The notes beneath the pieces were generated by a model. The model had not been told where the DNA came from. It ran no database searches and worked only from the letters and a program-made list of their open reading frames with translations. A DNA stretch of 20,000 nt. It comes from an uncultured virus (IMG/VR IMGVR_UViG_3300011386_000023). Lineage: Duplodnaviria > Heunggongvirae > Uroviricota > Caudoviricetes. A program made the translations under genes and the position numbers. Below are positions 1,051-19,766 of this stretch, one piece after another (position 1 is the stretch's first letter; each line of letters opens with the position of its first letter). The stretch lies in the IMG/VR virus record IMGVR_UViG_3300011386_000023; one strand, written 5' to 3'.

Positions 1051-1554
1051 TTATTCAAAGCTTTTATGCCAATAAAAATCTACATCATCAAACACTGCAT
1101 CTTCTGCTTCTTGTTGTAAAAATCCGTGCTCATTCATTGGCAAGAATGGACGTGCCGGGAACTTGCTCCCCGGGTGATTGACTTGTTTAAACACCTTACC
1201 GTTGAATGACAATGCCTGTTTATTTCTGGGACGTATCACATGTGGTCGTGTTTTCCCACCGTTATGTAGAATGGCAGCATAAGGCACATTGGTGCCAATG
1301 ATTGCTTGGTCACGGGTATATTGAGTCGTGATACTACGGCGCAAATTCCCTGATTGGTATAGGTAAGAAGGTTGTGATCTATCCGGAGCCAGACCAGCCC
1401 ATTTAGGACGTCCACCTGCATCAAAGTTATCATCAGTTATGGCTGCAAATGTGTTTGCAATCGCTGCCGATAATGGTGTGGTGTCACCCATACGATCAGC
1501 AGCCTGTGCCATCCGCTCAATCAGAGCATCATTTTTGATTTGAATAAAGCTCAT
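1051..1554 (-). CDS. Mu gpG-like virion morphogenesis (tail completion) protein
   Basis: GRPKW..L, SGNLRRSI, GTNVPYAAILHNGG and PARPFL motifs; located between F and I. Confidence 0.9.
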   Translation of the reverse strand: MSFIQIKNDALIERMAQAADRMGDTTPLSAAIANTFAAITDDNFDAGGRPKWAGLAPDRSQPSYLYQSGNLRRSITTQYTRDQAIIGTNVPYAAILHNGGKTRPHVIRPRNKQALSFNGKVFKQVNHPGSKFPARPFLPMNEHGFLQQEAEDAVFDDVDFYWHKSFE

Positions 1555-2801: not shown

Positions 2802-4384
2802 TAGTTTTGCTCCGCTTGAATACTTAAGTGACCCATAACTTCAGCTGCAAAAATTAAACGTGTTAATTTTTCTTGTAGAGCTGGTTCATCATCACCCGGG
2901 TAAACATCCTGAAGGAGTGCTAAAACTTCCTCTTCATTGCCAGCATTAATCTTTGCCAATAATTGCTTGGTCCAGTCTTCAGCCGTTGTTTGGGCAGTTT
3001 CAGATTGTTCTTTTAACAACAATTGCAATGCTTGCTCTTCAACAGGCAATTGAGCAGAGTTGGCAGCAATCAAATTGTTTAGTAAATTTGGCTGGAAAGT
3101 ATTCAACGCTAGGTTAGGTATTTGACTTGGCTGCTGCACAATCCCAAGTACAGGCTCTTTATCATTAGCAGGCTGTGGAATACCTAATTTCTCATGCGCC
3201 CATGACAAAGGTATCTTCATACCAACACCAACCAGCTTCTCAAGAGAATTACTAAATACCTCCATGTCTTCAACATCGCTGGTATCAAAGTAAAACTCCG
3301 GATAACGATCTTTATGAATATTGGGGTAGTTCAATCGCATCAAATAATCAATGAGATTGTCAGTAATTGAACGTGCTAACTGTTTGGCGTCAGACTTTAT
3401 CAATGCTTCAAATTGAATTTCATGCGTCTTTGACTGTGCATTTGTAGATGATTTGCCATCCGCTTGTGAAATCAAAGTGCCGCCAACAATAACTTTTGAT
3501 TGAATCTGCTCAAAATACTTGATCATATTCATATGGTTAGCAGTATCACCATCAGCAGCTGATTCAAAATCAATGCTCATCCCATTGGGAATAGTCCCAC
3601 CAGCATTGCGTCCAATTAGCATAACCGCACGCTGAAGAGTCATTTTTTCTTCTTTGGTCGCACCAGAAGGATATTTACCTATACGGATCGGCATGCCATA
3701 AATTTCTAAAAATTCCATCACATCGCGAACAGCATAATTTTTAAAAACAAATGGAAATGCTAATACCCGGTATAAGCCTGAACGACTGATGTAACCTGTT
3801 TTAGCTTGGTGTAAATGATTAAACCAGCCAAAGTCCCAGAACTCGGCACCATCTGGGGAACCATCATTTAAACGCAAACAGTTCAATTGGTTATGGGGGG
3901 TCATGAAGTTTCGAGGGACTACATGTTCAAAGCTATCTGGAAGCCACAAATTACCTAATCGTTTCCATTGAATCTCTTGGCATGAATAACCATGTCCAAC
4001 AGCATCCATCGCATTGAACAAGAACATCTCAAAGTTTTTAATATCATCAATCCACTCTTGGACTTCTTCAGCAATTTTCTTTTCTTGTGTACTGGCATTT
4101 TTAGGTGGTTTAACGCCCCATGCAAGTTTGTTTACACCTTTTTTGCGTTTATCCATCTCGGAAAAGATATGACCGTCGCGCTCTTCCATATCACAAAACA
4201 GATCAGCCTGAGCCTGCAAATTGCCTTGCTCAGCCTCTGTCAGTAATTGATGTAATCGATATGGTGTCATCCCAACAACTGGATGCTCTTGCCACTGATT
4301 TGACAGCCAAGATACTTCTGCGGTTTGCTGGGTTTCTAATGCAGTACGATCTTGTTTTTTAGAAGTGCGGTCTTTTTTAGCCAT
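2801..4384 (-). CDS. Portal protein (DUF935 / Mu gp29 family); likely start MAKKDR at 4384
   Basis: QADLFCDMEERDGH, FLEIYGMPIRIGKY and GGTLISQ motifs; the track start at 4420 overlaps the predicted -10 element. Confidence 0.9.
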   Translation of the reverse strand: MAKKDRTSKKQDRTALETQQTAEVSWLSNQWQEHPVVGMTPYRLHQLLTEAEQGNLQAQADLFCDMEERDGHIFSEMDKRKKGVNKLAWGVKPPKNASTQEKKIAEEVQEWIDDIKNFEMFLFNAMDAVGHGYSCQEIQWKRLGNLWLPDSFEHVVPRNFMTPHNQLNCLRLNDGSPDGAEFWDFGWFNHLHQAKTGYISRSGLYRVLAFPFVFKNYAVRDVMEFLEIYGMPIRIGKYPSGATKEEKMTLQRAVMLIGRNAGGTIPNGMSIDFESAADGDTANHMNMIKYFEQIQSKVIVGGTLISQADGKSSTNAQSKTHEIQFEALIKSDAKQLARSITDNLIDYLMRLNYPNIHKDRYPEFYFDTSDVEDMEVFSNSLEKLVGVGMKIPLSWAHEKLGIPQPANDKEPVLGIVQQPSQIPNLALNTFQPNLLNNLIAANSAQLPVEEQALQLLLKEQSETAQTTAEDWTKQLLAKINAGNEEEVLALLQDVYPGDDEPALQEKLTRLIFAAEVMGHLSIQAEQN

Positions 4385-4465
4385 GATAGATGCAAATACA
4401 ATTTGAGGATTCTGCACCATTGTGAAATTTTAGCGGGCTTAAAATCAGGCGGAAATGCTTCCGCC
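4385..4465 (-). promoter_or_regulatory. Late promoter candidate for portal: box 4448-4465, -10 CACAAT 4424-4419
   Basis: GGCGGAA-ATGC-TTCCGCC; same box to -10 spacing as the copies at 1019 and 8877. Confidence 0.75.
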
Positions 4466-4642
4466 CAATTTCATGCGCTCATTTGCGATTTAAGCGCCTT
4501 TTTTATTTTTACGGATCATTGCAGCAAAATACAAAACAAATGCCTTAAAGAGCGTTTATAAAGATTTATAAATCTATTTGTTCATGCTTGCCAGAGTGTG
4601 ATATGAATTTGAGTTCTTTAAATCATTCTAAGGAAACAAATA

Positions 4643-4912
4643 ATGGCTAATTATTTACATGACCAAAAATTTTTAAATCGAGGGGATATCGTACATCTAG
4701 ATTGTGATACTCAATGTAATTTTATGATTATGGATAATACTAATTTTCAAAATTATCGTAATGGGCGTCAATTCAATTACTATGGGGGACATTACACCCA
4801 TTTCCCAGCACGTATAAATGTACCTCATACTGGGACATGGAATGTTGTTATTGATTTAGGTGGTGGACGCGCGAATATTCGTTACAACCTTAGCTATTTG
4901 ACTGCAAACTAA
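4643..4912 (+). CDS. DUF1883-family small protein (moron)
   Basis: QCNFMIMDNTNFQNYRNG..YYGG..PARINVPHTGTWNVVIDLGG pattern recognised from memory; RBS AAGGA; opposite strand to the late genes; AT-rich. Confidence 0.8.
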   Translation: MANYLHDQKFLNRGDIVHLDCDTQCNFMIMDNTNFQNYRNGRQFNYYGGHYTHFPARINVPHTGTWNVVIDLGGGRANIRYNLSYLTAN

Positions 4913-5093
4913 TTTCGATTGAGGCTAAAGCATTTTCTAAAATTTGCTTTAGCTTTTTATTTATTTCAACATCATTTGTCATCAATCCCATAGGTGATCC
5001 ATTAATAGGCACTGTATTGGAAAAATATGTTACATCATCTAACTGTATTTCAATATTTGATATATTTTTTGGTGAAATCTTAATATCCATCAT
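4890..5093 (-). CDS. Hypothetical protein, 67 aa
   Basis: AT-rich ORF preceded by a degenerate late-promoter box at similar spacing to the other three. Confidence 0.55.
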   Translation of the reverse strand: MMDIKISPKNISNIEIQLDDVTYFSNTVPINGSPMGLMTNDVEINKKLKQILENALASIEISLQSNS

Positions 5094-5164
5094 TTAAAAC
5101 TCGTTTTAAGGTACTTCTAGTTTATTTTCAAAAGTAATTTTCAATAGGCGGAAACACTTCCAGC
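5094..5164 (-). promoter_or_regulatory. Degenerate late promoter: box 5147-5164, -10 TAAACT 5124-5119
   Basis: GGCGGAA-ACAC-TTCCAGC. Confidence 0.6.
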
Positions 5165-5177
5165 CAATTATAAAAAT

Positions 5178-6737
5178 TTACCAACATCCGGCTGTATCGA
5201 CCCAACCATCATAATCATCTGGGTTCGTTTCAATTTCTTCGCTAGAAGGTAGTGGAATGAACTCAATCGGTGCTAAAGGATGGTTGCTGGCATAATCAGC
5301 CAGCAAATGGGCTATAGCACTGTCACCGTGACGATCTTTATTATTTGAATTAGATTTCCCCTGTGCTGGAATACGTGCTACACCATTAACCATCACAAAA
5401 GCCCGGTGATCTTCAATTACATCCTGATCCGCTGGCATGTTCTCAATATCACCATCTTCCAGTGAGGCTTTAAAGTGTGGTGTATTTTCACGGTACCATG
5501 CTTCAGTCAACATGATAGCTTCAATTCGCTCACCATATATAACCTGCATGGCTTCAGCTAAATAACCACCATTACCTCCAGCATCATGTGCACCTTTGCT
5601 AAAGTTAGGCAGTATCGCAACAATAAGTTTTAGAAATTCTTCTTGTTGTTTATATGGAACTTTGAACATTTCGAACAAGAAAGGAATACGCTTTCTAGTA
5701 TTGGTCTGTTCTACCAACGGCCAGAATGAACAGGCATTGACTTTACGGGCAAAGTCTAAACCATAGTAACTGGTCGTTTTTTTTGGTAAAGCTTCAATCA
5801 ATGGCTTTAAATGTTCATTAAAGAATTCCAGTACTTCAGCATTTCGAGCCTCTTCACTCACATTGCTAAAGTCATCCCAACCTTTAGGTGCATGAAAACG
5901 GATGACTGGTACTGTGCTGTCTTTCTTACTCTCTAATAATGAATGTGGCAGCCAGCGACCACCACCTTTGGAGGGAACAACATCTAGCTCTTCATTGGCT
6001 GCATCGCCATAAAATCCATAAACATCATCAACCCATTCTTTTTCCTCATCAGGATCATAAGCAATGCCTTTACGTAAACAGACGGTATGACTATATAAAC
6101 CTTGAGCTACAGCATCAGAGAAGGTTATACGATGAACTGACCCTTTACGCTTACCAGATCGTATTTCGTTAATCAGTTCATTAAATGGATTATCTTCACC
6201 TTCATGAGTACTAATTACTCTGACACACCCCCCAAGAATTAAGAACGCTAAAGCAGCTTTAAGCAAACCCGGCAAATCATCATGGAATGCTGCCTCATCA
6301 ATAATTAGACGACCTTGACGCCCACGTAAGTTGGATGGTCGGCTGGTTAAAGCTTCAATTCGAAATCCAGAATTTGGAAAACGGATAATATAAGTCTGGA
6401 TCTGTTTATCACCATCCTCCCAAATACCTTCCTCAAGTTCACTTGCAGCTAAGTCATAGACCCTTGCCCACATTGCACAGGCTTGAATAAACTCAACTGT
6501 CATATCCTTGTTGTACCCAACATAATAGACATTTTGACCACCTGCATTTCGATCACTGGCACATTCAAGTGTTGCATCGGCACATTCAGCCCATGTCAAA
6601 CCAATACGACGTGATTTTTCAGCTACTTTCAGTGGGGTTTTATCAGACACCCATTTTTGCTGATACTTTAAAAGTACCGCTGGCACATCACTAAAAAAAT
6701 CAGGCTCAAGTGATTCATGAAGAGGGTTATTTGACAT
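5178..6737 (-). CDS. terL: Terminase large subunit (Mu gp28-like)
   Basis: EKSRRIGLTW Walker A variant, LIIDEAAF Walker B, GLDFAR and HGDSAIA nuclease motifs. Confidence 0.93.
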   Translation of the reverse strand: MSNNPLHESLEPDFFSDVPAVLLKYQQKWVSDKTPLKVAEKSRRIGLTWAECADATLECASDRNAGGQNVYYVGYNKDMTVEFIQACAMWARVYDLAASELEEGIWEDGDKQIQTYIIRFPNSGFRIEALTSRPSNLRGRQGRLIIDEAAFHDDLPGLLKAALAFLILGGCVRVISTHEGEDNPFNELINEIRSGKRKGSVHRITFSDAVAQGLYSHTVCLRKGIAYDPDEEKEWVDDVYGFYGDAANEELDVVPSKGGGRWLPHSLLESKKDSTVPVIRFHAPKGWDDFSNVSEEARNAEVLEFFNEHLKPLIEALPKKTTSYYGLDFARKVNACSFWPLVEQTNTRKRIPFLFEMFKVPYKQQEEFLKLIVAILPNFSKGAHDAGGNGGYLAEAMQVIYGERIEAIMLTEAWYRENTPHFKASLEDGDIENMPADQDVIEDHRAFVMVNGVARIPAQGKSNSNNKDRHGDSAIAHLLADYASNHPLAPIEFIPLPSSEEIETNPDDYDGWVDTAGCW

Positions 6738-7282
6738 TAACTTGTTATCCCTAAAATCTGTTTACGGATTTCATTAGCTGTTTCTTTGGATAAGCCACTT
6801 TTCTTGACAATCTTATCCACCTCTTTAGCAGCAGCTTGCACTCGCTCTTTAACTTCTGATTCCCACTTTTTCTGGTTCACAGAAGCCTTGGCAATTTCCG
6901 CAATACCTTTACCAGCTTTTGCCATAAGCATGATGCGATCTGCCGGGTCTGCATCAGGATTTTCTGATTCTTGCAAAGCAATAAGCGCATTAAACAATTC
7001 AGTTTGAACCAGCGATAAAACAGCAGAGCTTCGCATATCACTATCATCGGGCGCAGCATCGGCAATCATCATGGCTGCTTGTGTACTGGCCTGAACCGCA
7101 GCAAGTTTTTGTTCTACTTTTTGACCGTAACGGTGTACGCTTGACTTGCTGACGTTGTAACCACGCTCTTGCAGGATTTTTGCAATTTCTTCATAACCAC
7201 AAAAACCTTGATCCATAAACCGCTTATCAAGCCAAGTTTTATCCTCAGCACTTAGTAGATCAATTGACGACTCTCTTGCCAT
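6737..7282 (-). CDS. DUF3486 / Mu gp27-like putative terminase small subunit
   Basis: MARESSIDLL, GYNVSKSSVHRYG and GLS..A..IR..ILGI pattern; overlaps terL start by 1 nt. Confidence 0.88.
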   Translation of the reverse strand: MARESSIDLLSAEDKTWLDKRFMDQGFCGYEEIAKILQERGYNVSKSSVHRYGQKVEQKLAAVQASTQAAMMIADAAPDDSDMRSSAVLSLVQTELFNALIALQESENPDADPADRIMLMAKAGKGIAEIAKASVNQKKWESEVKERVQAAAKEVDKIVKKSGLSKETANEIRKQILGITS

Positions 7283-7290
7283 GTGTCACC

Positions 7291-7602
7291 TCAGTTCCAG
7301 TATTTTTCTGGACGGGCAATACCAGCTTGGCAATCAATTGTGTACTCCACAATATCAATACCTAAACGATCAAGTTTTGCATGCCAATGACCATCAGGCT
7401 GCTTTTTAATTTCAACTAGCTTACGTTCTTCCAAATAGTCCAATTGAACATGTAATTCTTGTGGGGTTGTATCAGCGTATAAAGCACGCATTACATCAAG
7501 CAATAAAGTATCCAATGCCCCAAGTGGACGAGCTTTATCTAGGGCATTCAGCAAATGCCAGCGCATACCTTCACGACGGATTTTTTGAAGATCAAAACTC
7601 AT
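7291..7602 (-). CDS. Mu gp26-like winged-helix protein
   Basis: RRE..RW.LL..L, LDYLEERKLV and GIARP pattern; conserved position before terS. Confidence 0.8.
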   Translation of the reverse strand: MSFDLQKIRREGMRWHLLNALDKARPLGALDTLLLDVMRALYADTTPQELHVQLDYLEERKLVEIKKQPDGHWHAKLDRLGIDIVEYTIDCQAGIARPEKYWN

Positions 7603-7943
7603 GGGTTAATTCCTTGCTTAATCTGAACTTTTTCAAGCTTTTCAGCTACGGCATCTAGCTTGGCTTCAATAACAGTTTGACCGCGAATATAGTCATCACG
7701 GGCAATATAACGAAATGGCATATCTGCTTGAAACTGAAGGAACTCTCGTTCGAGCTTTCGTAAGTCTTCTTGTCCCTTCAAGTGTTGGCGAGAGACTTCT
7801 TCAATTTTTTGATTTGTTGATTCAAAATTCTGCTGAATACTATTACTAATTTGATTACCTAACAATTTAAACATTCCCCAGACTGTACTAATGACAGTCG
7901 AGAGAATGAGAAAAATTTGATAGGGTTCAAGTTGTATGGTCAT
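7599..7943 (-). CDS. Membrane-anchored coiled-coil protein (gp25 positional equivalent)
   Basis: N-terminal TM helix; YIARDDYIRGQTVIEAKLD pattern. Confidence 0.7.
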   Translation of the reverse strand: MTIQLEPYQIFLILSTVISTVWGMFKLLGNQISNSIQQNFESTNQKIEEVSRQHLKGQEDLRKLEREFLQFQADMPFRYIARDDYIRGQTVIEAKLDAVAEKLEKVQIKQGINP

Positions 7944-8323
7944 GCATCCTCCTTAACATCGGATGCTGAAGGTAACGGCTTCGCTTTACTTTGATTTATA
8001 AAACGGCCAACAAGTCCCAAAACAGCCAAAACTAAAGTTATTTTGGATTGTGCGTCTGCTGGTAATGTTGCAATTAATTCAGGTGGCAATGTGTCATAAA
8101 AAGTTTGAACCGCCACAATGCCAGCAAAGGCAACGTTACTAAACCATTTCCAACCTGTACGCCAATTGTGTACCAAGACTCCAAATTGCATGGTAGAGCC
8201 ATGAACACCTTGAATATATTGAGGTTCAATAATTTTCTTAGGATTGTTCGCTAAAAGTTCTTTCTTTTGTTGTCGTAAACGACGAGAAAGCTCTTGAGGA
8301 GAAACACTATATTTTTTATTCAT
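7940..8323 (-). CDS. Putative holin with a basic N-terminal extension
   Basis: Overlaps endolysin stop; NWRTGWKWFS followed by two hydrophobic segments and GRFINQ; RBS GGAG. Confidence 0.75.
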   Translation of the reverse strand: MNKKYSVSPQELSRRLRQQKKELLANNPKKIIEPQYIQGVHGSTMQFGVLVHNWRTGWKWFSNVAFAGIVAVQTFYDTLPPELIATLPADAQSKITLVLAVLGLVGRFINQSKAKPLPSASDVKEDA

Positions 8324-8820
8324 GGCGTATCTCCAGCTGCATAACGTAGGTTACTGGCAACTCTACGAGTCCAACCACGACCAAATTCTGAGAATGTTTT
8401 TAGTTTTGCATAAAACTCTAGGCGCTCAGCATTGAACAAAACTAAGACATCATCGAGCGATTTTTTATTAATTGCTCCTAAAGTAATGTCTCCAACTACA
8501 CCATCATCAGCTACGCCAACTGCACGTTGTAGCATACGAATCGCATTACCAATGCCATGATTAACAGCAGCATCAAACATTTGAAAACCAATTGCAGAAT
8601 TGTATTGTGCGCATTTCGCGTGCTCCCAATATGCTTTACGGTAAATCTCTTTTGCTTGATCACGCTTCATATAGCGCATGGAACCGATATACCCATTTTC
8701 TCGCGCTGTTTTTATTGTGATACCCCAATTGGTTTCCCCACCAGGGTCTTTAGGATTATTTACATAGCCACCTTCATGACCAATAGTCCGTTCAAACACT
8801 TCATCAAAAGTGATAGACAT
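8320..8820 (-). CDS. Endolysin, glycoside hydrolase family 108 with peptidoglycan-binding C-terminus
   Basis: HEGGYVNNPKDPGGETNWGIT, FDAAVNHG and FGRGWTRRV. Confidence 0.95.
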   Translation of the reverse strand: MSITFDEVFERTIGHEGGYVNNPKDPGGETNWGITIKTARENGYIGSMRYMKRDQAKEIYRKAYWEHAKCAQYNSAIGFQMFDAAVNHGIGNAIRMLQRAVGVADDGVVGDITLGAINKKSLDDVLVLFNAERLEFYAKLKTFSEFGRGWTRRVASNLRYAAGDTP

Positions 8821-8847
8821 AAAAAAACCTCATCAAATGATGAGGCT
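8821..8847 (-). terminator. Intrinsic terminator-like hairpin abutting the endolysin ATG and masking its RBS
   Basis: Minus strand reads AGCCTCATCA-TT-TGATGAGGTT-TTTTT-ATG. Confidence 0.75.
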
Positions 8848-8894
8848 ATGTTGCAATCTGAACTATTTTTTTATCAGGCGGAAATGCTTCCGCT
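8848..8894 (-). promoter_or_regulatory. Late (Plys-like) promoter: box 8877-8894, -10 CAACAT 8853-8848
   Basis: GGCGGAA-ATGC-TTCCGCT, 57 bp from the start codon, the same distance as the protease copy. Confidence 0.72.
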
Positions 8895-8903
8895 CAGTTT
8901 TTA

Positions 8904-9455
8904 TTATTTTAACTTACAAGCATTTTCTAATGGCGAAATCACATATTGAAGCCCACGAATATCAAAAGAAACAAACGCAACATTTTTATTTGTAGTAGTA
9001 AATTTTAGAGCTAATTTATCATGCTTCAACAAAGGATCAATCATTTCAATAGGATTACTAAAGAATAGTGTTTGTAAATCATCGCCTCTACGCATTGAAT
9101 AGTCGACTGCTTTTTCAGCATCAAAACGCAAAGTGATATTTGAAGATTTATAATCTCTCCCAACAGAATCAACACTATTCTTTAATGCAAAATAAACATC
9201 AAATTTATTTTCTTGACAACGCAGAACTAAGCTTGGTCTAGTTTGAATTCCATCTAGTTTTAATGGTTCATCAGATTCGACATAAGCTAGCACCGTAAAA
9301 CTATCATCAATTGGATTTTTCTCATGGTGGTATTGCCATTTATTTTGAGATACTTGTGCTTCTGAAGCTGCTTGAATTTCACCTTGCTCAGCAACTTTTT
9401 CTTTAGAACATCCAGTTAATACAAGTAGCCCAACAACTAAAATAAATTTTTTCAT
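8904..9455 (-). CDS. Lipoprotein, probably co-transcribed with the repressor
   Basis: MKKFILVVGLLVLTG-C lipobox; start overlaps repressor stop. Confidence 0.85.
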   Translation of the reverse strand: MKKFILVVGLLVLTGCSKEKVAEQGEIQAASEAQVSQNKWQYHHEKNPIDDSFTVLAYVESDEPLKLDGIQTRPSLVLRCQENKFDVYFALKNSVDSVGRDYKSSNITLRFDAEKAVDYSMRRGDDLQTLFFSNPIEMIDPLLKHDKLALKFTTTNKNVAFVSFDIRGLQYVISPLENACKLK

Positions 9456-10102
9456 TAATAAAAAGTCCCGCGACTAGGTGGTATCCATCTACCAATAATT
9501 TCAACATCTGTCGATTCATTTAAATCAAGTTTCATGGGTAAATATTTTTCATTATCTGACAACAATAACAATTCATTAAATTGACGTTGAACACGTTTAA
9601 CCCAGAAATTTTCGTGATTTCTTACAACATAAATAAAACCATCAGTTAATTCTTTATCAATCGTATTGATTAATAAAGGCTCCTTATCATGAATAGTTGG
9701 CTCCATTGAATCGCCCTTGGCATAAACGATGACTAAGTCCTTAGCATAAAGCCCATGTCTTGCGAGCCAGTCTTTTCTAAATGCCAAACGGCTAGTAGGT
9801 TCTGTTTCACCCAAACAAACTGCACCATCACCAGCAGACACCGAAACATCATAAACATTGACTAAGTCAAACTCATAAGCAAAGTCACTATTTTGTAACT
9901 GTGGTGATTTATTACCCGTTACTATGTAACCAATATCTGCTCCAACTTCGGCAATTGCAGCTAAATATCCCGCTTTTGGTTGTGTCAAATCCTTCTCGTA
10001 ATCGATCTGACTTTTCTTGGTAGTGCCTGCTAATTCAGCAAAAACTGGTTGCGTATAACCCAGTCGCTCACGCTCTTCTTTAAGTCTTGCTCCAATAGTC
10101 AC
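9455..10102 (-). CDS. CI-like repressor (XRE HTH + S24 peptidase); likely GTG start at 10102
   Basis: IGARLKEERERLGYTQ HTH; SAGDG cleavage site, GDSMEP Ser, VKRV Lys; GGAG 8 nt upstream of GTG. Confidence 0.92.
   Translation of the reverse strand: MTIGARLKEERERLGYTQPVFAELAGTTKKSQIDYEKDLTQPKAGYLAAIAEVGADIGYIVTGNKSPQLQNSDFAYEFDLVNVYDVSVSAGDGAVCLGETEPTSRLAFRKDWLARHGLYAKDLVIVYAKGDSMEPTIHDKEPLLINTIDKELTDGFIYVVRNHENFWVKRVQRQFNELLLLSDNEKYLPMKLDLNESTDVEIIGRWIPPSRGTFY
9883..9900. promoter_or_regulatory. Auxiliary operator candidate inside the repressor gene
   Basis: AGTCACT-ATTT-TGTAACT resembles the main operator. Confidence 0.5.
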
Positions 10103-10121
10103 AAAAAACACTCCAATAATA

Positions 10122-10150
10122 TTGACAAGTAACTAAATAGTTACTAATGT
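10122..10150 (+). promoter_or_regulatory. Early lytic sigma70 promoter with operator palindrome at 10128-10145
   Basis: TTGACA-17 bp-TAATGT; AGTAACTA-AA-TAGTTACT fills the spacer. Confidence 0.85.
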
Positions 10151-11799: not shown

Positions 11800-13551
11800 A
11801 TGACAAATCCAAACTTAGCAAAACAAGATTACTTGCGCGAAATTGCAGCCAAACTTGCTGCTGCCGAGTTTGGTGGGAAAGCTGCGATTGTTAAAACTGC
11901 ATGCGACTTTTTAAGTCTTAGCAAGCCACAACTTTACCGTGAACTTGAAAAAGTAGGTTTTAAATCTGAACGTAAACAGCGCTCTGATAAAGGCAAAACA
12001 GTTGTACCAACTGAAGTTGCTGAAATGGTCGGCGGTATGGTGCATGTAGCAACCCGTGCCAATGGTAAAAAGACATTGCCGATGACTACTGCACTGGAAA
12101 TGCTTATCGCTGACGGTAAAGCACCAAAAGTATCAGCAGCAACAGTTGCGCGTGTCATGAAACAAAACATGTGCCACCCAAAACAACTGGCTACACCATC
12201 GGCACATACACAGCAAAAATCGCTACATCCAAACCACGTTTGGCAGGTTGATGCCTCTGTCTGTGTTTTGTTTTACCTGCCTAAAGGCGGTATGCAAGTG
12301 ATGGATGAGAAAAAGTTCTACAAGAACAAACCTGCCAATGTGAAGAAAATCGAAAATGACCGTGTGATTCGCTATGTCATGACTGACCACTATTCAGGCT
12401 CAATTTATGTTGAGTATGTCTATGGCAGTGAAAGCTCTGAAAACTTAATTGAGATTTTCTTAAATGCAATTCAAAAGCGTTCTGCTCAAGAGCCGATGCA
12501 TGGTGTTCCAAACATCCTTTACACAGACAAAGGCTGTGCAAACACCAGTGGCTTATTCAGAAATTTACTTGAGCGCCTAGATGTAACTTTTATACCCCAT
12601 GCAACTGGTAATTCACAAGCAAAAGGCCAAGTTGAAAACGCTCAAAATATTGTTGAAACACAGTTTGAAGGCCGCCTGCGTTTCATGCAGATCAACAATA
12701 TCCAAGAGTTAAATGCCCAAGCTACTGCATGGCGCATGTATTGGAATGAAACAAAAATTCATAGCCGTACTAAGCGCAGCCGTAATGCTGTTTGGCAAAC
12801 CATTAAGCCTGAACAATTACGCATTGCTCCAACAATGGAATTGTGCCGTGAACTTATCAGCACAGTACCAGTTGAAAAAACAGTTAAAGCCAATCTTACG
12901 GTTAGTCATGCCATTCAAGGCTATGGCTCACAAGACTATGACGTTCGTCATGTTGATGGGGTTTATCCGAAAGCTAAGTTGCAGATTGTAGTGAATCCAT
13001 ACCGTGCGCCATGCATCGATGTATTGACTAAAGATCAACACGGCAATGAGGTCATTTTCACATGCGAACCGATGCAAGTTGATTGGGTTGGCTTTGGAAA
13101 TGATGCAGCAATCATCGGTGAAGAAATTAAGGCAATGCCTCAAAGCAAAATTGATGAAAACCGCAAACGCATACTTAAAAAAGCTTATGACGCTGAAACT
13201 CTTGAGCAAGTTGATAAAGCAATTGCCAAGAAGAAACCAGCCTATGACGGTCAGCTCAATGCTATGGCAGACGTTGCAGCGGTTGAAGTTCCGACTTACA
13301 TCAAACGAGCTGGTGAGCAAGTCACTACACCAATACAACGTCGTGAATCTGCACCTATTTCAACAGTAGAAGCTGCAAAAGAAATCCGAGGCTTAATTGG
13401 TGATCTGTGGACCACGGATCACTACAAGGCCCTCAAAAAATCTTATCCAGATGGTTTAGTCCCTGCCGATGCAGTACGTGAAATTGCTGAAGCAATAAAG
13501 GCTGAACAAGAACTTCCACTACAACGGCCACAACTTCGTGTTGTTGGTTAA
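11800..13551 (+). CDS. DDE transposase (MuA analogue, rve core)
   Basis: RKQRSDKG, WQVDAS (D), YTDKG (D), AKGQVE (E). Confidence 0.93.
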   Translation: MTNPNLAKQDYLREIAAKLAAAEFGGKAAIVKTACDFLSLSKPQLYRELEKVGFKSERKQRSDKGKTVVPTEVAEMVGGMVHVATRANGKKTLPMTTALEMLIADGKAPKVSAATVARVMKQNMCHPKQLATPSAHTQQKSLHPNHVWQVDASVCVLFYLPKGGMQVMDEKKFYKNKPANVKKIENDRVIRYVMTDHYSGSIYVEYVYGSESSENLIEIFLNAIQKRSAQEPMHGVPNILYTDKGCANTSGLFRNLLERLDVTFIPHATGNSQAKGQVENAQNIVETQFEGRLRFMQINNIQELNAQATAWRMYWNETKIHSRTKRSRNAVWQTIKPEQLRIAPTMELCRELISTVPVEKTVKANLTVSHAIQGYGSQDYDVRHVDGVYPKAKLQIVVNPYRAPCIDVLTKDQHGNEVIFTCEPMQVDWVGFGNDAAIIGEEIKAMPQSKIDENRKRILKKAYDAETLEQVDKAIAKKKPAYDGQLNAMADVAAVEVPTYIKRAGEQVTTPIQRRESAPISTVEAAKEIRGLIGDLWTTDHYKALKKSYPDGLVPADAVREIAEAIKAEQELPLQRPQLRVVG

Positions 13552-13560
13552 GGAGCAACC

Positions 13561-14838
13561 ATGAAACAAAAAGACTGCTCGACAAAACTCAAGGACCTCA
13601 TTTTAGACAACGGAATTATACAAGCTGATTTAGCTCGATACGTACAGCTAAGCCCGTCATCGATCAACATCATCATCAACTGCCTTAGATGGCCGAAGAA
13701 GAATACTGATTTTGTGAAAGCCCGTTTTAGAGAGTTCTTGGTCAACGCAAAGATTAGCGAGTCAGAAATCGATGATGCATTTAACGAAATGTTTGATGCA
13801 CCACCACAAAAAACACTTCTTGAAAGACTTGGCTCAGAGGCAGCTAGTGAAAGAGAACTAGACCATGTGTATCGCGCATTAGTAGCACGACACGGAAACA
13901 AACAAATTAATGAACTTTTAAATGAGGACGAACAAGCCATGTTGCTCGCAAAACAGTCGTTGACTCAACAAGCTAAAAAACATTTTGGCTTGTTTGACAA
14001 CCCTTTCACAAATGAAGTTCGTGCAGTTGAAGAACTATTCTTGAATAGCGACATCAACTATGTGCGTCAAGCCTTATATCAGACAGCTAAACATGGCGGA
14101 TTCATAGCAATCTCAGGTGAGTCAGGTTCAGGTAAATCGACTTTACGACGCGACCTTTTAGATCGTATTCGTCGTGAAAAATTACCAATTTTGATTATCG
14201 AACCATATGTCATTGCGACTGAAGATAATGACATTCAAGGTAAGACACTTAAATCAAGCCATATTGCTGAAGCAATTATTAATACGGTTAGTGCTGGTCA
14301 AGAGAAACCACGCATGTCTGCCGAGGCTCGTTTCCGCCAAGTACATATGATTTTAAAAAATTCAAGTGAAGCCGGTTATAGCCATTTATTAGTGATTGAA
14401 GAAGCTCACAGCTTGCCAATCGCTACTCTTAAACAGTTAAAGCGTTTCTTTGAATTAGAGGACGGCTACAAAAAACTAATTGGGATCGTCTTAATCGGTC
14501 AGCCAGAACTTGCAAACAAATTAAGTGAGCGCAACCCAGCGGTACGTGAAGTTGTACAGCGTTGTGAGAGTGTGACACTGGAACCTTTAACAAATACTTC
14601 ATTAGTTGAGTACTTACAACACCGAGTTAAAAGCGTCGATAAAAAACTGGAGTCGATCATCACTGAAGAAGGCATTCAAGCAGTTGTTGACCGTCTAACT
14701 CAAATCAATAGCGCTGGCAAAACCACACGCTCACTTTTATATCCACTTGCCATTGGCAACTTAATTACCAGTTCTATGAACCTCGCAGCAGAAATCGGCG
14801 AGGACGTTATCACACGCGACATCGTGATGGGGGTTTAA
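13561..14838 (+). CDS. Transposition ATPase (MuB analogue, ExeA-like AAA) with N-terminal HTH
   Basis: GESGSGKS Walker A, LLVIEEAH Walker B, LIGQPEL. Confidence 0.92.
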   Translation: MKQKDCSTKLKDLILDNGIIQADLARYVQLSPSSINIIINCLRWPKKNTDFVKARFREFLVNAKISESEIDDAFNEMFDAPPQKTLLERLGSEAASERELDHVYRALVARHGNKQINELLNEDEQAMLLAKQSLTQQAKKHFGLFDNPFTNEVRAVEELFLNSDINYVRQALYQTAKHGGFIAISGESGSGKSTLRRDLLDRIRREKLPILIIEPYVIATEDNDIQGKTLKSSHIAEAIINTVSAGQEKPRMSAEARFRQVHMILKNSSEAGYSHLLVIEEAHSLPIATLKQLKRFFELEDGYKKLIGIVLIGQPELANKLSERNPAVREVVQRCESVTLEPLTNTSLVEYLQHRVKSVDKKLESIITEEGIQAVVDRLTQINSAGKTTRSLLYPLAIGNLITSSMNLAAEIGEDVITRDIVMGV

Positions 14839-15472: not shown

Positions 15473-16133
15473 ATGTCCAGCATGCGGAGCAACAAACAGC
15501 CTAGATGCCCTATTAGGGCATGGTGAAGCAAGCAAAGCTTTCGTTGCTTCACTAAATCTGGTTGGTGATTTAGCTACGCCACTGGTCAAGTACTTGGGAA
15601 TGTTCCGCTCTCAAAATCGTGAGCTTACTTTTGAACGCACAGCTAAGTTACTTGGCGAAATTGCTGCGGATATTAATGCGCAGCAAATCAAACGTGGTCA
15701 CCACAGTTACCCAGCTCCTAAAGCAGCATGGATCTGGGCAATCAACACAATGCTTGAGCGTCGTGACCAAGGCAAGTTGCAGTTGCCTCTGAAAAACCAC
15801 GGCTATCTATATGAAGTGATCAGTTCATTCAAGCCAGAAAATGCACCAGCACCAACTGAGCGTCGAGCTGCTGTGCCACTAGAGAAAACTGAAGCTGAAC
15901 GTGCAGCTGAGCAAGCTGAACATGAACGTCAAAAGCATATACGCCCAAACTTCAGCGTTACCGAAATGCTTGGCTTCACAAAAATGAATGAGAAGCAGCC
16001 AGAACGTGGGCTGAAGAATATTCCAAAAGAACAACTTATGGCGCATGTCGTTAAACACAAGCATCCAGATGAAACTTTAGAACAGTGCTACCAACGCTTA
16101 AAAGCAGCTGAAACACAGGAGCAAACTAACTAA
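15462..16133 (+). CDS. Early protein with N-terminal CPxCG motif, typical of Mu-like phages
   Basis: MKTRCPACGA..SLDALL, YLGMFR and LPLKNHGYLYEV. Confidence 0.8.
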   Translation: MKTRCPACGATNSLDALLGHGEASKAFVASLNLVGDLATPLVKYLGMFRSQNRELTFERTAKLLGEIAADINAQQIKRGHHSYPAPKAAWIWAINTMLERRDQGKLQLPLKNHGYLYEVISSFKPENAPAPTERRAAVPLEKTEAERAAEQAEHERQKHIRPNFSVTEMLGFTKMNEKQPERGLKNIPKEQLMAHVVKHKHPDETLEQCYQRLKAAETQEQTN

Positions 16134-16636
16134 TGGCACGTAAATCACTCAAAGAACCACAACTTCAAAGTTGGGAAGCAGTTGATCAAACATTGGCACA
16201 AATGGCTGAGATCAACCGTGACATCGCACTTGAAGAAGCTGCTTGTAATGAACAGGTCGACAAGCTCAAGGAAGCAACCAAACAACGTCTTAAACCGCTA
16301 TTGGAACGAGTTAAGGCGTATGAACTTCAACTTAAAGAATTTTGTGATCACCGCAAAAATGAGTTTTTGCAAATCAAGAGTAAAAAGTTGACACACGGTT
16401 CGGTTGGCTACCGCTTATCCACCAGTGTGACTATTCCTGATCCTGTTTTTACTTGCCAGATGCTCAAGCAATTAAAGCTTGAACACTGCATCCGTACTAA
16501 AACCGAACCTGATAAGGAGTCAATCAAACAACTCACACCCGAACTAATCGCTGAAATTGGTGCAACTCTTAAACAGCGCAACAACTTTGGCTATGAAATT
16601 GAAACAGTTGATCCAACTGCTACAGCTGCTCATTAA
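16133..16636 (+). CDS. gam: Host-nuclease inhibitor Gam
   Basis: Coiled-coil N-terminus; KSKKLTHGSVGYR and IRTKTEPDKE motifs. Confidence 0.88.
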   Translation: MARKSLKEPQLQSWEAVDQTLAQMAEINRDIALEEAACNEQVDKLKEATKQRLKPLLERVKAYELQLKEFCDHRKNEFLQIKSKKLTHGSVGYRLSTSVTIPDPVFTCQMLKQLKLEHCIRTKTEPDKESIKQLTPELIAEIGATLKQRNNFGYEIETVDPTATAAH

Positions 16637-16658: not shown

Positions 16659-16826
16659 ATGTACACAGTTAAAGCACTTGAACCGCAACTAAATGATGAT
16701 CCGCAAGCCCTGTTTGCAATCGTCCGTGATGACGACGTTTTAGTCGGTCATTTCTACCGCCACGAACATGCAGAAATTGCATGTGCAGCACTTAACCAAA
16801 ATCAAGCAACTACTGAAGGAAATTAA
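16659..16826 (+). CDS. Hypothetical protein, 55 aa
   Basis: ATG at 16659 with RBS GAGG. Confidence 0.65.
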
Positions 16827-16830
16827 ACTC

Positions 16831-17118
16831 ATGAACAAATCAGAACTTATCAAACACATCGCTTCTTCTGCTTCTCTTACTCAAGCACAAGCTACAGCTG
16901 CTCTTAATGCAGTTGAAAGTGGCATCAGCAAAGCACTTGCTGCTGGGGATGACGTTGCATTAATCGGCTTTGGAACCTTTTCCGTAAAAGAACGTGCTGC
17001 GCGTACAGGCCGCAATCCTAAAACTGGCGAAGAGCTACAAATTGCTGCGGCAAAAGTACCTTCCTTCAAAGCAGGAAAAGCACTTAAAGAGGCTGTTAGT
17101 AATGGCAACAAAAATTAA
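16831..17118 (+). CDS. hup: Phage-encoded HU DNA-binding protein
   Basis: MNKSELI...[22 protein letters not shown]...[13 protein letters not shown]. Confidence 0.95.
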
Positions 17119-17281
17119 GGGCTTAGACATGCTTGAAAAGAACGGTTTAAGGGTTGTCCGTAAATACAACATTTGCGGATGGTTCGAGTATCACGTTTTG
17201 AATGAGGCTGGTCAGAGAATTTCACGGCATACAGTTCAACAACGTGCGATTGATATAGCTCTGAACACGCTTCAAGCATAA
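17102..17281 (+). CDS. Hypothetical protein, 59 aa
   Basis: ATG at 17102 with RBS GAGG; overlaps the end of HU. Confidence 0.65.
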
Positions 17282-17346
17282 GCGAAACACAGGCATTCGT
17301 GCCTGTGTCTGCTGGATGTCGTGGTCCAGTACTGATGAGCAGCGAG
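17282..17346 (+). ncRNA. Type II hammerhead ribozyme; predicted cleavage 3' of C17309
   Basis: GC-GAAA, stem III CACAGGCA/TTCG/TGCCTGTG, TC, stem I TGCTGGAT/GTCGTG/GTCCAGTA, CTGATGA-GC; all core nucleotides intact. Confidence 0.92.
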
Positions 17347-17352
17347 AACATA

Positions 17353-17421
17353 ATGATCAGAATTGAAGATTTAGAAAAGTTACCACCTGAAGTGGTTGAA
17401 AGTATTAAGGAGACAACATAA
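17353..17421 (+). CDS. 22-aa mini-ORF MIRIEDLEKLPPEVVESIKETT (possible gene remnant)
   Basis: Starts just after the ribozyme; TAATG overlap with the next gene. Confidence 0.4.
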   Translation: MIRIEDLEKLPPEVVESIKETT

Positions 17422-18134
17422 TGAGTATGACCCGCGAAGAAGCAATTCTAAAAATCAAAAAATGTTTAGCATTGGCTAAATCAGCCAATGAAAATGAAGC
17501 AGCAATTGCACTACGTCAAGCGCAGTCTTTAATGCGCGAATTTCAGATTGATCCTGATCTGCTCGATATCGTTGAGGCTAGTTGCGAAAGTAAAGCAACA
17601 AAAATACCGCAAGCTTGGGAAGCAAGTTTAGTTATGACAATTGCTAGAGCTATGCAGTGCAAACCTATTTTTAGTTCTGGCAGTAGAACTTGGGGCATTA
17701 AAGCTTCATGGACATTTATTGGTGTCGATCCAGCACCAGAAGTTGCTTCCTATACTTTTGATGTCTTATATCGCCAAGTGATTCGTTCAAGGAAAAGTTT
17801 TATTGAAAACAGTTTAAAACGTGTGACGGTTAAAAAAAATAAGGTGCGTCGTGCGGATTTATTTTGTGAAGGTTGGGTGGATTCAGTTAAGCATTTAATA
17901 ACTGACTTAGATATTGAAGTTCCAGCAAATACCAATGAACGTATTAAAAAACATATGGATAAAACTCATGGAAAGCTTGGTTCATTTACGCCCAAAGACC
18001 GCAATAAAGGCAAAGCTTTCAATGATAGAGCAGCTAATGATTATCATGCGGGTAAACAATCTGGGAAATCAGCAAAAATAAATCAAGCAATGAATGGTGG
18101 TAAACAATTTGAAAAGTTGGGAGCACCTACATGA
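17421..18134 (+). CDS. DUF2786-domain protein
   Basis: KIKKCLALAKSANENEAAIALRQAQSLM; F..GW motif; RBS AAGGAG. Confidence 0.88.
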   Translation: MSMTREEAILKIKKCLALAKSANENEAAIALRQAQSLMREFQIDPDLLDIVEASCESKATKIPQAWEASLVMTIARAMQCKPIFSSGSRTWGIKASWTFIGVDPAPEVASYTFDVLYRQVIRSRKSFIENSLKRVTVKKNKVRRADLFCEGWVDSVKHLITDLDIEVPANTNERIKKHMDKTHGKLGSFTPKDRNKGKAFNDRAANDYHAGKQSGKSAKINQAMNGGKQFEKLGAPT

Positions 18135-18418
18135 AAACAATGAGACTGTCAGATAAAGAAGCACAGTTAATTTTAGATCGTCGCGCTGAACAACACCACA
18201 AAAAGGCAACTTTTGCTTTTCAAGTCAGGTCGATTCAAGTAGCAAATGCATATTTTGAATGGGCTAAGAAGAACAGTTTTCTAGAACCTACTTTGGGAAC
18301 GTTTGTTAATTCATTTTGTTATGACGGACCCGACGCCAAAGTTATGTGTGGTGCCGTACATCAAATATGGAAACTTGTATTTTCGTTTCAAATTCCTATG
18401 GAGAAACCACAATGCTAA
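18131..18418 (+). CDS. Hypothetical protein
   Basis: ATGA overlap; RBS GGGAG. Confidence 0.7.
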   Translation: MKTMRLSDKEAQLILDRRAEQHHKKATFAFQVRSIQVANAYFEWAKKNSFLEPTLGTFVNSFCYDGPDAKVMCGAVHQIWKLVFSFQIPMEKPQC

Positions 18419-18624
18419 TAATTGCTTATTTCCTCGTTTTCTTCATCGGTATAGGAAGCTGCTTTAAAGAAGCTAAATTGGCGTGGTTATCGCGTAATAG
18501 TATTGGCTTAACTATCTTTGAAAAACGTGCCTACACTTTAAAAGCATGCATTGCGATTCTTATCGCCATTTTTGGTCTATTAGGTCTACTAGAAGCAATT
18601 GTCTGCTCTGGAGTGTTGCAATGA
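18412..18624 (+). CDS. Small two-TM membrane protein
   Basis: ATG at 18412 with GGAG; two hydrophobic helices. Confidence 0.65.
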   Translation: MLIIAYFLVFFIGIGSCFKEAKLAWLSRNSIGLTIFEKRAYTLKACIAILIAIFGLLGLLEAIVCSGVLQ

Positions 18625-19058
18625 AATTCAATAAAAAAGCCAATCTGATTAAGCTAATCCATGTGGGCAAAACAAAACTTAGTTTAGATGATGAGCTTTA
18701 TCGAGACATTCTTATTAGCACTACTGGTAAAACCAGTTCAAAAGATTTGAATCTAGCACAGCTTGAAGCTGTGCTGGATCGGTTCAAACAACTTGGCTTT
18801 GAAGTTGAATCAAAAAATAAATCTGGCGTTAAGAACTTAGCAAGTGATGCGCAAAGCAAATTGATTCGTCATTTATGGTTGCAACTACATGCAGCTGGTC
18901 AAGTTAGAAATAAAGATGAAAAAGCTTTAGCAAAATTTGTAGAGAACAAAGTTGGTGTGAGTGCATTGCAATTTATGAGCAGCCACCATGCAGACATGAT
19001 CATTACTCACTTACGCCAATGGTGCAAACGTTGCGGCATTGAAAGAACAGAACAATAA
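18621..19058 (+). CDS. gemA: GemA / gp16 (DUF1018) family protein
   Basis: LIKLIHVGK..L.LDDELYR..L...TGK.SSKDL; LIRHLW; AL.KFV. Confidence 0.92.
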   Translation: MKFNKKANLIKLIHVGKTKLSLDDELYRDILISTTGKTSSKDLNLAQLEAVLDRFKQLGFEVESKNKSGVKNLASDAQSKLIRHLWLQLHAAGQVRNKDEKALAKFVENKVGVSALQFMSSHHADMIITHLRQWCKRCGIERTEQ

Positions 19059-19061
19059 GAA

Positions 19062-19141
19062 AGTAAAAACCCCAGTGCGCCAACACTGAGGTTTTAAATT
19101 CCCCCCACCGACGAAAGTAAGAGGAGATAAATCATAAGACT
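19062..19141 (-). ncRNA. Candidate ~80-nt antisense sRNA to the mor leader
   Basis: Minus-strand promoter immediately upstream; ends in terminator CCTCAGTG-TTGGCG-CACTGGGG-TTTTT. Confidence 0.55.
19065..19095 (-). terminator. Intrinsic terminator, better formed on the minus strand
   Basis: G-U pair on -, C/A mismatch on +; T tracts on both sides. Confidence 0.7.
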
Positions 19142-19146
19142 GCTAA

Positions 19147-19175
19147 ATCTTAACATGGGATAACAGCGGGAGCAA
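19147..19175 (-). promoter_or_regulatory. Antisense sigma70 promoter overlapping the mor RBS
   Basis: TTGCTC-17 bp-TAAGAT with extended -10 TG. Confidence 0.6.
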
Positions 19176-19177
19176 TT

Positions 19178-19627
19178 ATGGTTTATCGTCCTCACATCAC
19201 TGATGCACAACAACTATTTTCTGATGAAGAACTCATTGCACTTATGCCTAAAAACTTTGCATTTGTGGCGAAGCTCATTGGCGTAAAACCAGCTTTAAGC
19301 CTTATTGAAAGTTATGGCGGCATTCTAGTTTTCGTGCCCCATAAACACGCTTTAGGCATTCATCATGAACTTTCACAGATCATTGGTTATTCTAAGTTAC
19401 AGCTGCTCTCAGAGCACTTGGGTAACACTTCAATAGAAGTACCTATGGCTACAACAATCACGATTGCAATGCGTAATAGAACGATCCGTGAGCTTGCTGC
19501 TAAAAAAGAAAGCCGCTCAAAGATAGCCCGTAAATTTGGCGTGACTATTAGAACAATCCGCAGTATCGTAAACGGCGAGGAAAAGCTTAAGTTTCATCTA
19601 GACCAGAATCTGGATTTATTCGAATAA
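19178..19627 (+). CDS. mor: Mor/C-family transcription activator
   Basis: LIG...AL.LIESYGG..VFVP, RNRTIRE and C-terminal HTH IARKFGVTIRTIRSIV; follows gemA. Confidence 0.88.
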   Translation: MVYRPHITDAQQLFSDEELIALMPKNFAFVAKLIGVKPALSLIESYGGILVFVPHKHALGIHHELSQIIGYSKLQLLSEHLGNTSIEVPMATTITIAMRNRTIRELAAKKESRSKIARKFGVTIRTIRSIVNGEEKLKFHLDQNLDLFE

Positions 19628-19653
19628 AAAAGCGGACTAAAAGCCCGCTTTTT
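19626..19653 (+). terminator. Intrinsic terminator after mor, probably bidirectional
   Basis: AAAAAAGCGGACT-AAA-AGCCCGCTTTTT. Confidence 0.85.
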
Positions 19654-19687
19654 CTATTTCACAGCATGAAAAATCTTTTCAAACTTC

Positions 19688-19766
19688 ATCCCACTCAATC
19701 CCATCTTATCCCACAAAATCCCACAATTATCTCATCACTCTTATATATTTATATTATTAGGTATCA
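19688..19766. repeat. Prophage end: phased ATCCCA repeats and terminal CA
   Basis: ATCCCAC/T at 19688, 19698, 19708, 19718 and ATCTCAT at 19729; AT-rich spacer; GGTATCA ending at 19766. Confidence 0.75.

Follow-up and report, generated by a model that had tools for sequence, protein, structure and literature searches.

The stretch of DNA analysed here (the window) comprises 20,000 nucleotides (nt) of an uncultured virus of the Caudoviricetes, IMG/VR record IMGVR_UViG_3300011386_000023. A 71-nt gap at positions 17282-17352 runs from the stop codon of an open reading frame (ORF) of 59 amino acids (aa) to the next ribosome-binding site and ORF. This gap is filled by a self-cleaving RNA element, which is almost certainly a genuine and active type II hammerhead ribozyme. 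Its parts, with their base pairs (bp), are as follows.

17279-17281, plus strand: stop codon TAA of the 59-aa ORF, directly 5' of stem II
17282-17283, plus strand: 5' strand of stem II, GC, forming the 2 bp G17282-C17340 and C17283-G17339
17284-17286, plus strand: core nucleotides G12 A13 A14, as in the Rfam consensus; the motif GAAA at 17284-17287 is these three plus A15.1
17287-17308, plus strand: stem III hairpin, 17287-17295 paired with 17300-17308, loop UUCG at 17296-17299
17307-17309, plus strand: GUC triplet, in which C17 is C17309 by the Rfam alignment
17309/17310, plus strand: predicted self-cleavage site, 3' of C17309, from the position in the Rfam alignment
17310-17331, plus strand: stem I hairpin, 17310-17317 paired with 17324-17331 (8 bp), loop GUCGUG
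17319-17322, plus strand: 5' strand of the pseudoknot, UCGU, in loop I, 4 bp with 17342-17345
17332-17338, plus strand: core CUGAUGA (C3 to A9), from the Rfam alignment
17339-17340, plus strand: 3' strand of stem II, GC in the sequence, followed by a single A before GCGA
17342-17345, plus strand: 3' strand of the pseudoknot, GCGA, overlapping the Shine-Dalgarno-like GAGA (17344-17347) of the next ORF

The Rfam model Hammerhead_II (RF02276) matches positions 17280-17348 on the plus strand with 59.3 bits (E 3.1e-10; gathering score, 37 bits), and the match spans the full model, 1-66 of 66. RF02276 is the only family to reach the gathering level in the 20-kb window; a permissive Rfam scan of the window (E <= 1) returned, beyond the hammerhead, just two rows from unrelated families, far below threshold. 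All core nucleotides are consensus in the RF02276 alignment: the element has C3 U4 G5 A6 N7 G8 A9, G12 A13 A14 and the pair A15.1-U16.1, and nucleotide 17 is not G. Stem III is 9 bp long if A15.1-U16.1 (A17287-U17308) is counted, with 8 bp beyond that pair. The Rfam structure line and RNAfold agree on the type II permutation, in which loops close stems I and III and stem II opens to the flanks. RNAfold places stems I and III in the minimum-energy fold of the element alone and likewise inside 251 nt of context, and the folds show a plain ribozyme with no aptamer-like domain. An alternative pairing of CUGAU (17332-17336) with AUCAG (17356-17360), also seen in the folds, was dropped because its partner is not conserved in relatives. 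An earlier interpretation of the window (the sequence-only reading) had described the element as an intact hammerhead of type II whose loop I can form a pseudoknot with the tail and which begins at the base after a stop codon. Every item that it listed lies where it had been placed, and the search with Rfam hammerhead models that it had called for gave the match above gathering score reported here.

We next consider the evolutionary record of the helices. Alignment A1 holds 35 distinct rows from related prophages, with a structure of 23 pairs written from the window copy. Standard pairs occupy 98.4% of its 794 cells, and 11 of the 23 pairs change on both sides, in 107 cells, among rows that are related and so share ancestry. 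On four of five measures (pairing, number of cells, types of pair and covariation score), none of 500 shuffles came up to the observed value, and sliding the partners by 1-3 columns left 25-41% of cells paired. Scanning viral contigs for the core pattern of this subtype gave at least 131 stretches, with 80 loci among the matches listed; the A1 sources plus the listed loci make up alignment A3 (111 model matches, 107 distinct rows). Here 98.0% of 2395 cells pair, compared with 28-49% in the slid controls, and 16 of the 23 pairs change on both sides, in 453 cells. By helix, such changes affect seven of the nine modelled pairs of stem III and all eight pairs of stem I. The G-C and C-G pairs of stem II are kept in 35/35 and 107/107 rows, the selection pattern having fixed these bases in the 107-row set. 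The sequence-only reading had named a lack of stem covariation in related prophages as grounds for rejecting the ribozyme; covariation turned out to be strong in both alignments.

The pseudoknot lies outside the covariance model, and 98.4% of its cells are paired in A3. Of its four pairs, one shows changes in both partners and two in a single partner, and the fourth is constant. The second pair is GC in 82 of the 107 rows, CG in 15, AU in five, GU in two and something else in three; the window copy carries the minority C-G form. Among the core positions, position 7 alone varies (U, A or C). This is the core position that tolerates change, and variation there is expected for a working hammerhead. 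Near-identical prophages differ at this position (17336 in the window), which is U in the window, A in L008-L012, and C in L022, L024, L025 and most of the divergent loci.

Since the prediction of cleavage is made from sequence and structure, the element might in principle be an inactive relic or a chance match. A full-length match with an E-value of 3.1e-10 and a consensus core, compensatory changes in the helices across 107 variants, and the presence of the same subtype in at least 131 viral stretches speak against this, and we find such an explanation hardly credible.

By its gene content, the window as a whole represents a Mu-like prophage whose early and late arms diverge, and the ribozyme lies within the early arm. 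The neighbouring features are listed below.

1051-9455, minus strand: Mu-type late genes running leftward from the repressor, encoding a GH108 endolysin, Mu Gp27, the Mu portal protein, Mu F and a virion morphogenesis protein
9455-10111, minus strand: S24/HTH repressor (Pfam), facing the start of the plus-strand early block
11800-13551, plus strand: rve (DDE) transposase (Pfam rve, 1.5e-08)
13561-14838, plus strand: MuB-like AAA+ protein (Pfam AAA_22, 1.3e-17)
16133-16636, plus strand: Gam (Pfam Phage_Mu_Gam, 8.9e-30)
16768-17118, plus strand: HU (Pfam)
17102-17281, plus strand: 59-aa ORF from the ORF list, with homologous 59-60-aa ORFs in related loci and no Pfam family
17353-17421, plus strand: 22-aa ORF directly behind the ribozyme, its stop overlapping the ATG of the DUF2786 gene (TAATG)
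17421-18134, plus strand: DUF2786/DUF7168 gene (Pfam PF23771, 2.5e-26; PF10979, 1e-10)
18546-19058, plus strand: gemA (Pfam PF06252, 3.7e-32)
19066-19095, plus strand: stable hairpin between gemA and mor (predicted fold, -12.6 kcal/mol, z -4.79)
19178-19627, plus strand: mor, of the late or middle activator family (Pfam PF08765, 2e-10)
19628-19655, plus strand: terminator-like hairpin and U run, immediately 3' of mor (sequence and fold)

A DDE transposase, a MuB-like ATPase, Gam, GemA and Mor are thus encoded on one strand with a divergent repressor, as expected for a Mu-like early operon, and the late genes on the minus strand match Portal_Mu (8.2e-92), Phage_Mu_F (2.5e-20) and Mu Gp27 (2.3e-50). 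The Pfam assignments agree with the sequence-only reading in placing the ribozyme inside the early operon, with transposase, Gam and HU on one side and DUF2786, GemA and Mor on the other. The host of the prophage is an Acinetobacter species; the closest named genome records for the DUF2786 protein are from Acinetobacter species, at 88% and 80% identity. No named phage relative emerged from a distant blastn search of positions 16900-17900 against 50,697 phage records, which returned nine records matching the HU gene only.

The distribution of the ribozyme was determined in loci with relatives of the DUF2786 protein, 77 from viral contigs and 46 from genomes. Presence and absence were counted with a covariance model, R1, built from the 35 distinct variants of A1; in the window itself R1 finds one copy, the 17282 element, and no second ribozyme. 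Places matched by a loose regular expression, for example in L038, L096 and L113, proved to be false matches, and the counts rest on R1 instead. Where the DUF2786 protein shows 45% identity or more (52 loci: L002-L045, L079-L085, L120), 50 loci have the ribozyme, the exceptions being L031 and L038. In G001, the nearest virus record, there is a single hammerhead, at the homologous position. The other, more distant genome loci number 38, and five of these have the ribozyme: Paludibacterium L116 and the Aeromonas-type loci L118, L121, L122 and L123. A search of 35 whole viral records without the ribozyme with RF02276 gave no match over the cut-off and one weak match of 19.2 bits, and a search for another ribozyme class in the slot, at the Rfam gathering level in 20 of the 73 loci without a hammerhead, gave no matches. 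In Aeromonas-type loci two hammerheads bracket the DUF2786 gene or small ORFs:

L122, 2401-2475 and 3529-3608: paired copies flanking the DUF2786 gene
L118, 1266-1343 and 2160-2236: paired copies
L121, 1064-1140 and 1739-1795: paired copies, the second a short variant without stem III in the alignment (44.6 bits)

In the different genera, the ribozyme goes with the DUF2786 module rather than with mor. This bears on the role proposed in the sequence-only reading, that cleavage frees a 5'-OH RNA carrying DUF2786, gemA and mor and so sets the timing of Mor and of the late genes. The ribozyme does lie upstream of mor in the same strand block, and a consensus scan listed no plus-strand promoter-like site in 17000-19149. 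However, the ribozymes that flank the DUF2786 gene in Aeromonas L122 tie the element to that module rather than to mor, and the plain ribozyme fold gives no hint of regulated cleavage. In addition, gemA and mor are separated by 119 nt (19059-19177), containing the hairpin at 19066-19095, and the consensus scan lists a promoter-like site at 19150-19179, ahead of mor. The hairpin, which the same scan lists on the minus strand only, is a possible end of the early transcript, judging by its predicted fold. Given this gap with its stable hairpin and promoter-like site, mor may not ride on the cleaved RNA, but may have its own transcript, off the RNA of DUF2786 and gemA. Taken together, a timing role through Mor appears improbable. 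The position of mor at the far right end is unlike the gene order of Mu.

To describe the junction more generally, we used the matches listed for viral contigs, which comprise 86 unique examples of the subtype, each with flanks of 150 nt. In 46 of them the stem II G directly follows a stop triplet; the upstream-flank background is 3.6% per position. When the stop has to end an open frame of at least 20 codons (the ORF criteria are our own), its offset is 0 in 39/86 and within -2 to +1 in 59/86. A start codon opening at least 20 codons lies 2-17 nt past the motif GAGCAGC in 70/86, as a raw count. A Shine-Dalgarno-like 4-mer is present in 67/86, and in 31 of these it begins at +1 from GAGCAGC, overlapping the last base of the pseudoknot. 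The related loci have the same arrangement. With few exceptions the stop codon leads straight into the ribozyme, and a Shine-Dalgarno-like GAGG or GAGA and then a start codon come a few bases 3' of it, the tails reading GCGAGG or GCCGAGG with ATG 5-10 nt later. The order of stop codon, ribozyme and ribosome-binding site is general for the subtype.

The overlap between the 3' strand of the pseudoknot and the Shine-Dalgarno sequence of the next ORF raises the question of whether folding or cleavage gates translation. In the window, GCGA at 17342-17345 overlaps GAGA at 17344-17347, with the ATG at 17353, and the tails of the relatives and the 31 instances with a 4-mer at +1 are similarly arranged. 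The pseudoknot has 4 bp, however, and shares 2 nt with the Shine-Dalgarno-like motif here; outside the pseudoknot, the predicted folds show the site to be just as unpaired in the intact RNA as after cleavage, and both pseudoknot strands stay on the 3' product after cleavage. We give a translation switch little credence.

The genes around the ribozyme are exchanged freely. Counted by eye, at least six unrelated ORFs occur upstream (the 59-aa ORF, HU, and 99-aa, 148-aa and 80-aa families, among others) and at least five downstream (the 22-aa ORF, an 87-aa, an 83-aa or a 103-aa ORF, or DUF2786 itself). Close relatives may differ in the genes on both sides while the ribozyme is nearly identical, and many viral contigs have two copies 450-750 nt apart that bracket single genes. 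In published examples, too, the genes flanked by the ribozyme vary (PMC3088659). These observations would suit a sequence of about 70 nt that is kept as a homology patch for swapping early genes or spreading cassettes, with cleavage being secondary. A homology patch needs neither an intact core nor a pseudoknot, though, and selection has acted on RNA pairing rather than DNA identity, as seen from the fixed core and the compensatory changes in 16 of 23 pairs. As the main explanation a module junction is unlikely, but it may hold together with a role in mRNA processing.

The two loci with a closely related DUF2786 protein and no ribozyme have a different RNA structure in the same slot:

L031, 2345-2410, and L038, 2360-2420: replaced slot, directly upstream of the same 22-aa ORF

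Both keep the stop codon TAA and the first ~16 nt of the element, comprising a degenerate GCGAAAC, the 5' strand of stem III and a short hairpin (CAGGC-UAAA-GCCUG). The remainder, up to the 22-aa ORF, is a GC-rich hairpin of 7-8 bp followed by U7. The predicted folds have energies of -27 and -28 kcal/mol (z -3.9 and -4.4), and the hairpin looks like an intrinsic terminator; a consensus terminator scan of the plus strand does not list the GC hairpin with U7 in L031, though the fold shows it. A 25-mer of this element was found in those two viral contigs only, and L031 and L038 differ in their upstream genes. Our reading of the sequences is that stem I, the core and stem II were replaced by a terminator-like hairpin at the same junction, and that this state is the derived one. 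They would fit a need for a hairpin at the 3' end of the upstream RNA, but two loci of a single origin prove nothing.

The 22-aa peptide encoded behind the junction is conserved in divergent loci, examples being MIRIEDLEKLPPEVVESIKETT, MLTHEELENLPEEIKSSIGEIP and MIEIKDLDKLPPEVVISIGETS, with the motif E/D-L-E/D-x-L-P-x-E-V/I. From this conservation, the ORF probably encodes a real micro-protein or serves as a coupling leader.

What could the ribozyme do at this position? We consider that it is most likely a constitutive processing site in the early message, and lean towards this answer with some confidence. The ribozyme would be transcribed within the long early mRNA of the prophage, and the RNA would fold into stems I and III, the 2-bp stem II and the 4-bp pseudoknot between loop I and the 3' tail, and cut itself after C17309. 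The upstream product would run from a ner-like gene through the transposase, MuB, Gam, HU and the 59-aa ORF. It would retain the stop codon of the latter and end 28 nt past it, with the 9 bp of the stem III hairpin and a terminal 2',3'-cyclic phosphate. The downstream product, with the 22-aa ORF, DUF2786/DUF7168, gemA and perhaps mor, would open with a 5'-OH at the 8-bp stem I hairpin and have its ribosome-binding site ~35 nt in. A stem II of 2 bp should let the halves separate. Each product would thus be capped by a hairpin and an unusual end chemistry. Going by the general picture of bacterial mRNA decay, both new ends would be poor entry points for exonucleases and for the 5'-end-dependent RNase E, and the halves would gain independent lifetimes and translation contexts. 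We take the cut to be constitutive because no sign of regulation was found; a constitutive cut would make translation and mRNA decay of the distal early genes independent of those of the proximal ones. That segmentation and stability of the mRNA are the function under selection is, in our estimation, slightly favoured over its negation.

Several points limit this interpretation. A hammerhead was found by R1 in none of the 33 viral loci with a 36-44% identical DUF2786 protein, and it is absent by the same model from 33 of the 38 distant genome loci; since these loci do without one, Mu-like early operons work without a hammerhead. Contigs from RNA libraries span the predicted cut unbroken (X1 record 2, 17258-18200; X11 record 3, 16700-18135), and the break that does occur in X1, where one contig ends at 17283 and the next starts at 17258, is at 17258-17283, away from 17309/17310. 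The selection of alignment rows by regular expression and pattern fixes the core, making its invariance partly a matter of construction, and A3 was fitted to the nested structure of the model. Finally, the stabilising effect of a 5'-OH with a 5' hairpin and of a 2',3'-cyclic phosphate with a 3' hairpin is one that we infer from general knowledge of mRNA decay.

The remaining RNA-library data are as follows. Runs X1, X5 and X11, which contain the prophage, consist of contigs. The X11 contig that crosses the site is 42 kb long, and in X5 the stretch 17042-17521 is not covered. X23, a run of raw reads, contributes 59 reads with 90-95% similarity, most of them on the HU gene; being so few and so divergent, they indicate that X23 lacks the prophage. 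RNA ends are not visible in contigs, which may also derive from DNA, and the library data neither support nor refute cleavage.

A more specific idea is that the layout itself, with a stop codon, the ribozyme and a ribosome-binding site overlapping the pseudoknot tail, is the functional unit of the subtype. We put this forward tentatively, as something that we would doubt sooner than assume. The same goes for its corollary, for now a speculative one, that the type II topology has been selected for the protective hairpin that it leaves on both products, acting as a "terminator without termination". If true, the upstream message would gain a hairpin 3' end while RNA polymerase continues into the distal genes. 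In L031 and L038, nature would then have exchanged one device for another of related function, and these loci would offer a way of testing what bacterial hammerheads are for, a question that dates from 2011. For annotation, the gap at 17282-17352 should be regarded as a ribozyme and not as an empty spacer, and the early operon as probably cut into two RNAs. The layout, the flank exchange and the hairpin variants provide matched natural constructs for asking whether hairpin-capped mRNA ends are selected.

Some further features of the prophage were observed outside the early operon junction. Four direct ATCCCA repeats with an exact 10-bp spacing lie at 19688-19723, just past the mor terminator, and many related viral contigs end near these repeats, which may be transposase-binding sites of the right end of the prophage. 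Between the repressor gene and the first early ORF, TTGACA (10122-10127) is followed by an inverted repeat, AGTAACT-AAAT-AGTTACT (10128-10145). From its sequence the region 10122-10145 looks like an operator over the early promoter; a consensus promoter scan listed nothing there. A moron-like DUF1883 ORF (4643-4912, plus strand) sits on the opposite strand within the late-gene arm, and a VasI-like ORF of a type VI secretion family (8904-9455, minus strand; weak match, 1.2e-06) adjoins the repressor gene.

How does the element compare with known systems? Type II hammerheads with this pseudoknot are abundant in bacteria and flank prophage genes, and they cleave polycistronic RNAs of ~2 kb in vitro and in E. 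coli (PMC3088659). Processing of polycistronic RNAs by prophage hammerheads has been suggested, not established (PMC3088659, PMC6765202), and the latter source suggests transcripts of differing stability or translation while calling the function undetermined. In Desulfovibrio, in-vivo cleavage is known for three type II hammerheads located near phage genes; as usual for hammerheads, the upstream product has a 2',3'-cyclic phosphate and the downstream one a 5'-OH (PMC8782182). Bacterial self-cleaving ribozymes have their strongest gene associations with Mu-like phage genes, for a biological reason that is stated to be unknown (PMC10085705). A literature search for a hammerhead of Acinetobacter found no paper on this copy by title, and one on hammerhead, Shine-Dalgarno and prophage found none on the layout of stop, ribozyme and Shine-Dalgarno sequence by title. 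The terms "stop codon", "Shine-Dalgarno" and "ribosome binding" have no occurrences in the searched passages of Perreault et al. 2011 (PMC3088659). The find is largely an ordinary one, because a gap in a prophage early operon is the usual home of this RNA family. The family, the pseudoknot, the prophage setting and the link to Mu-like genes are already in print, and there is little new here for the field. Our additions are modest: a quantified layout of stop codon, ribozyme and ribosome-binding site, flank exchange in Acinetobacter prophages, and a natural replacement of the ribozyme by a hairpin.

Among the closest known systems is the type II class of Perreault et al. 2011 (RF02276), with which the window copy shares the topology, the core, the very short stem II, the location between genes of a prophage polycistron, and the pseudoknot, in which loop I forms 4 bp with the bases immediately past stem II (PMC3088659). 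The hammerheads of Desulfovibrio vulgaris (loc 1-3; Olzog et al. 2021) are likewise of type II and near genes for phage-like and DNA-binding proteins. Their fragments of 29-32 nt (5') and 39 nt (3') can be compared with the 28 nt (17282-17309) and at least 36 nt (17310-17345) predicted here (PMC8782182). The Desulfovibrio copies cleave in vivo and in vitro (PMC8782182), in another host and with other sequences; for the Acinetobacter copy cleavage is predicted. The gene association reported by Roth et al. 2014 and Weinberg et al. 2015, as summarised in PMC10085705, also holds for the window, where the ribozyme is found beside Gam, GemA, Mor and DUF2786. Within its subtype the window copy shows no structural difference, the second pseudoknot pair being C-G (15/107 rows) where most are G-C (82/107). 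A final comparison is with RiboJ, an engineered insulator made from a satellite-RNA ribozyme and an added hairpin, placed just upstream of a ribosome-binding site. RiboJ gives the downstream cistron a defined 5'-OH end with a hairpin, whatever lies upstream. In contrast to this engineered device, the natural type II topology would itself leave a hairpin on both products.

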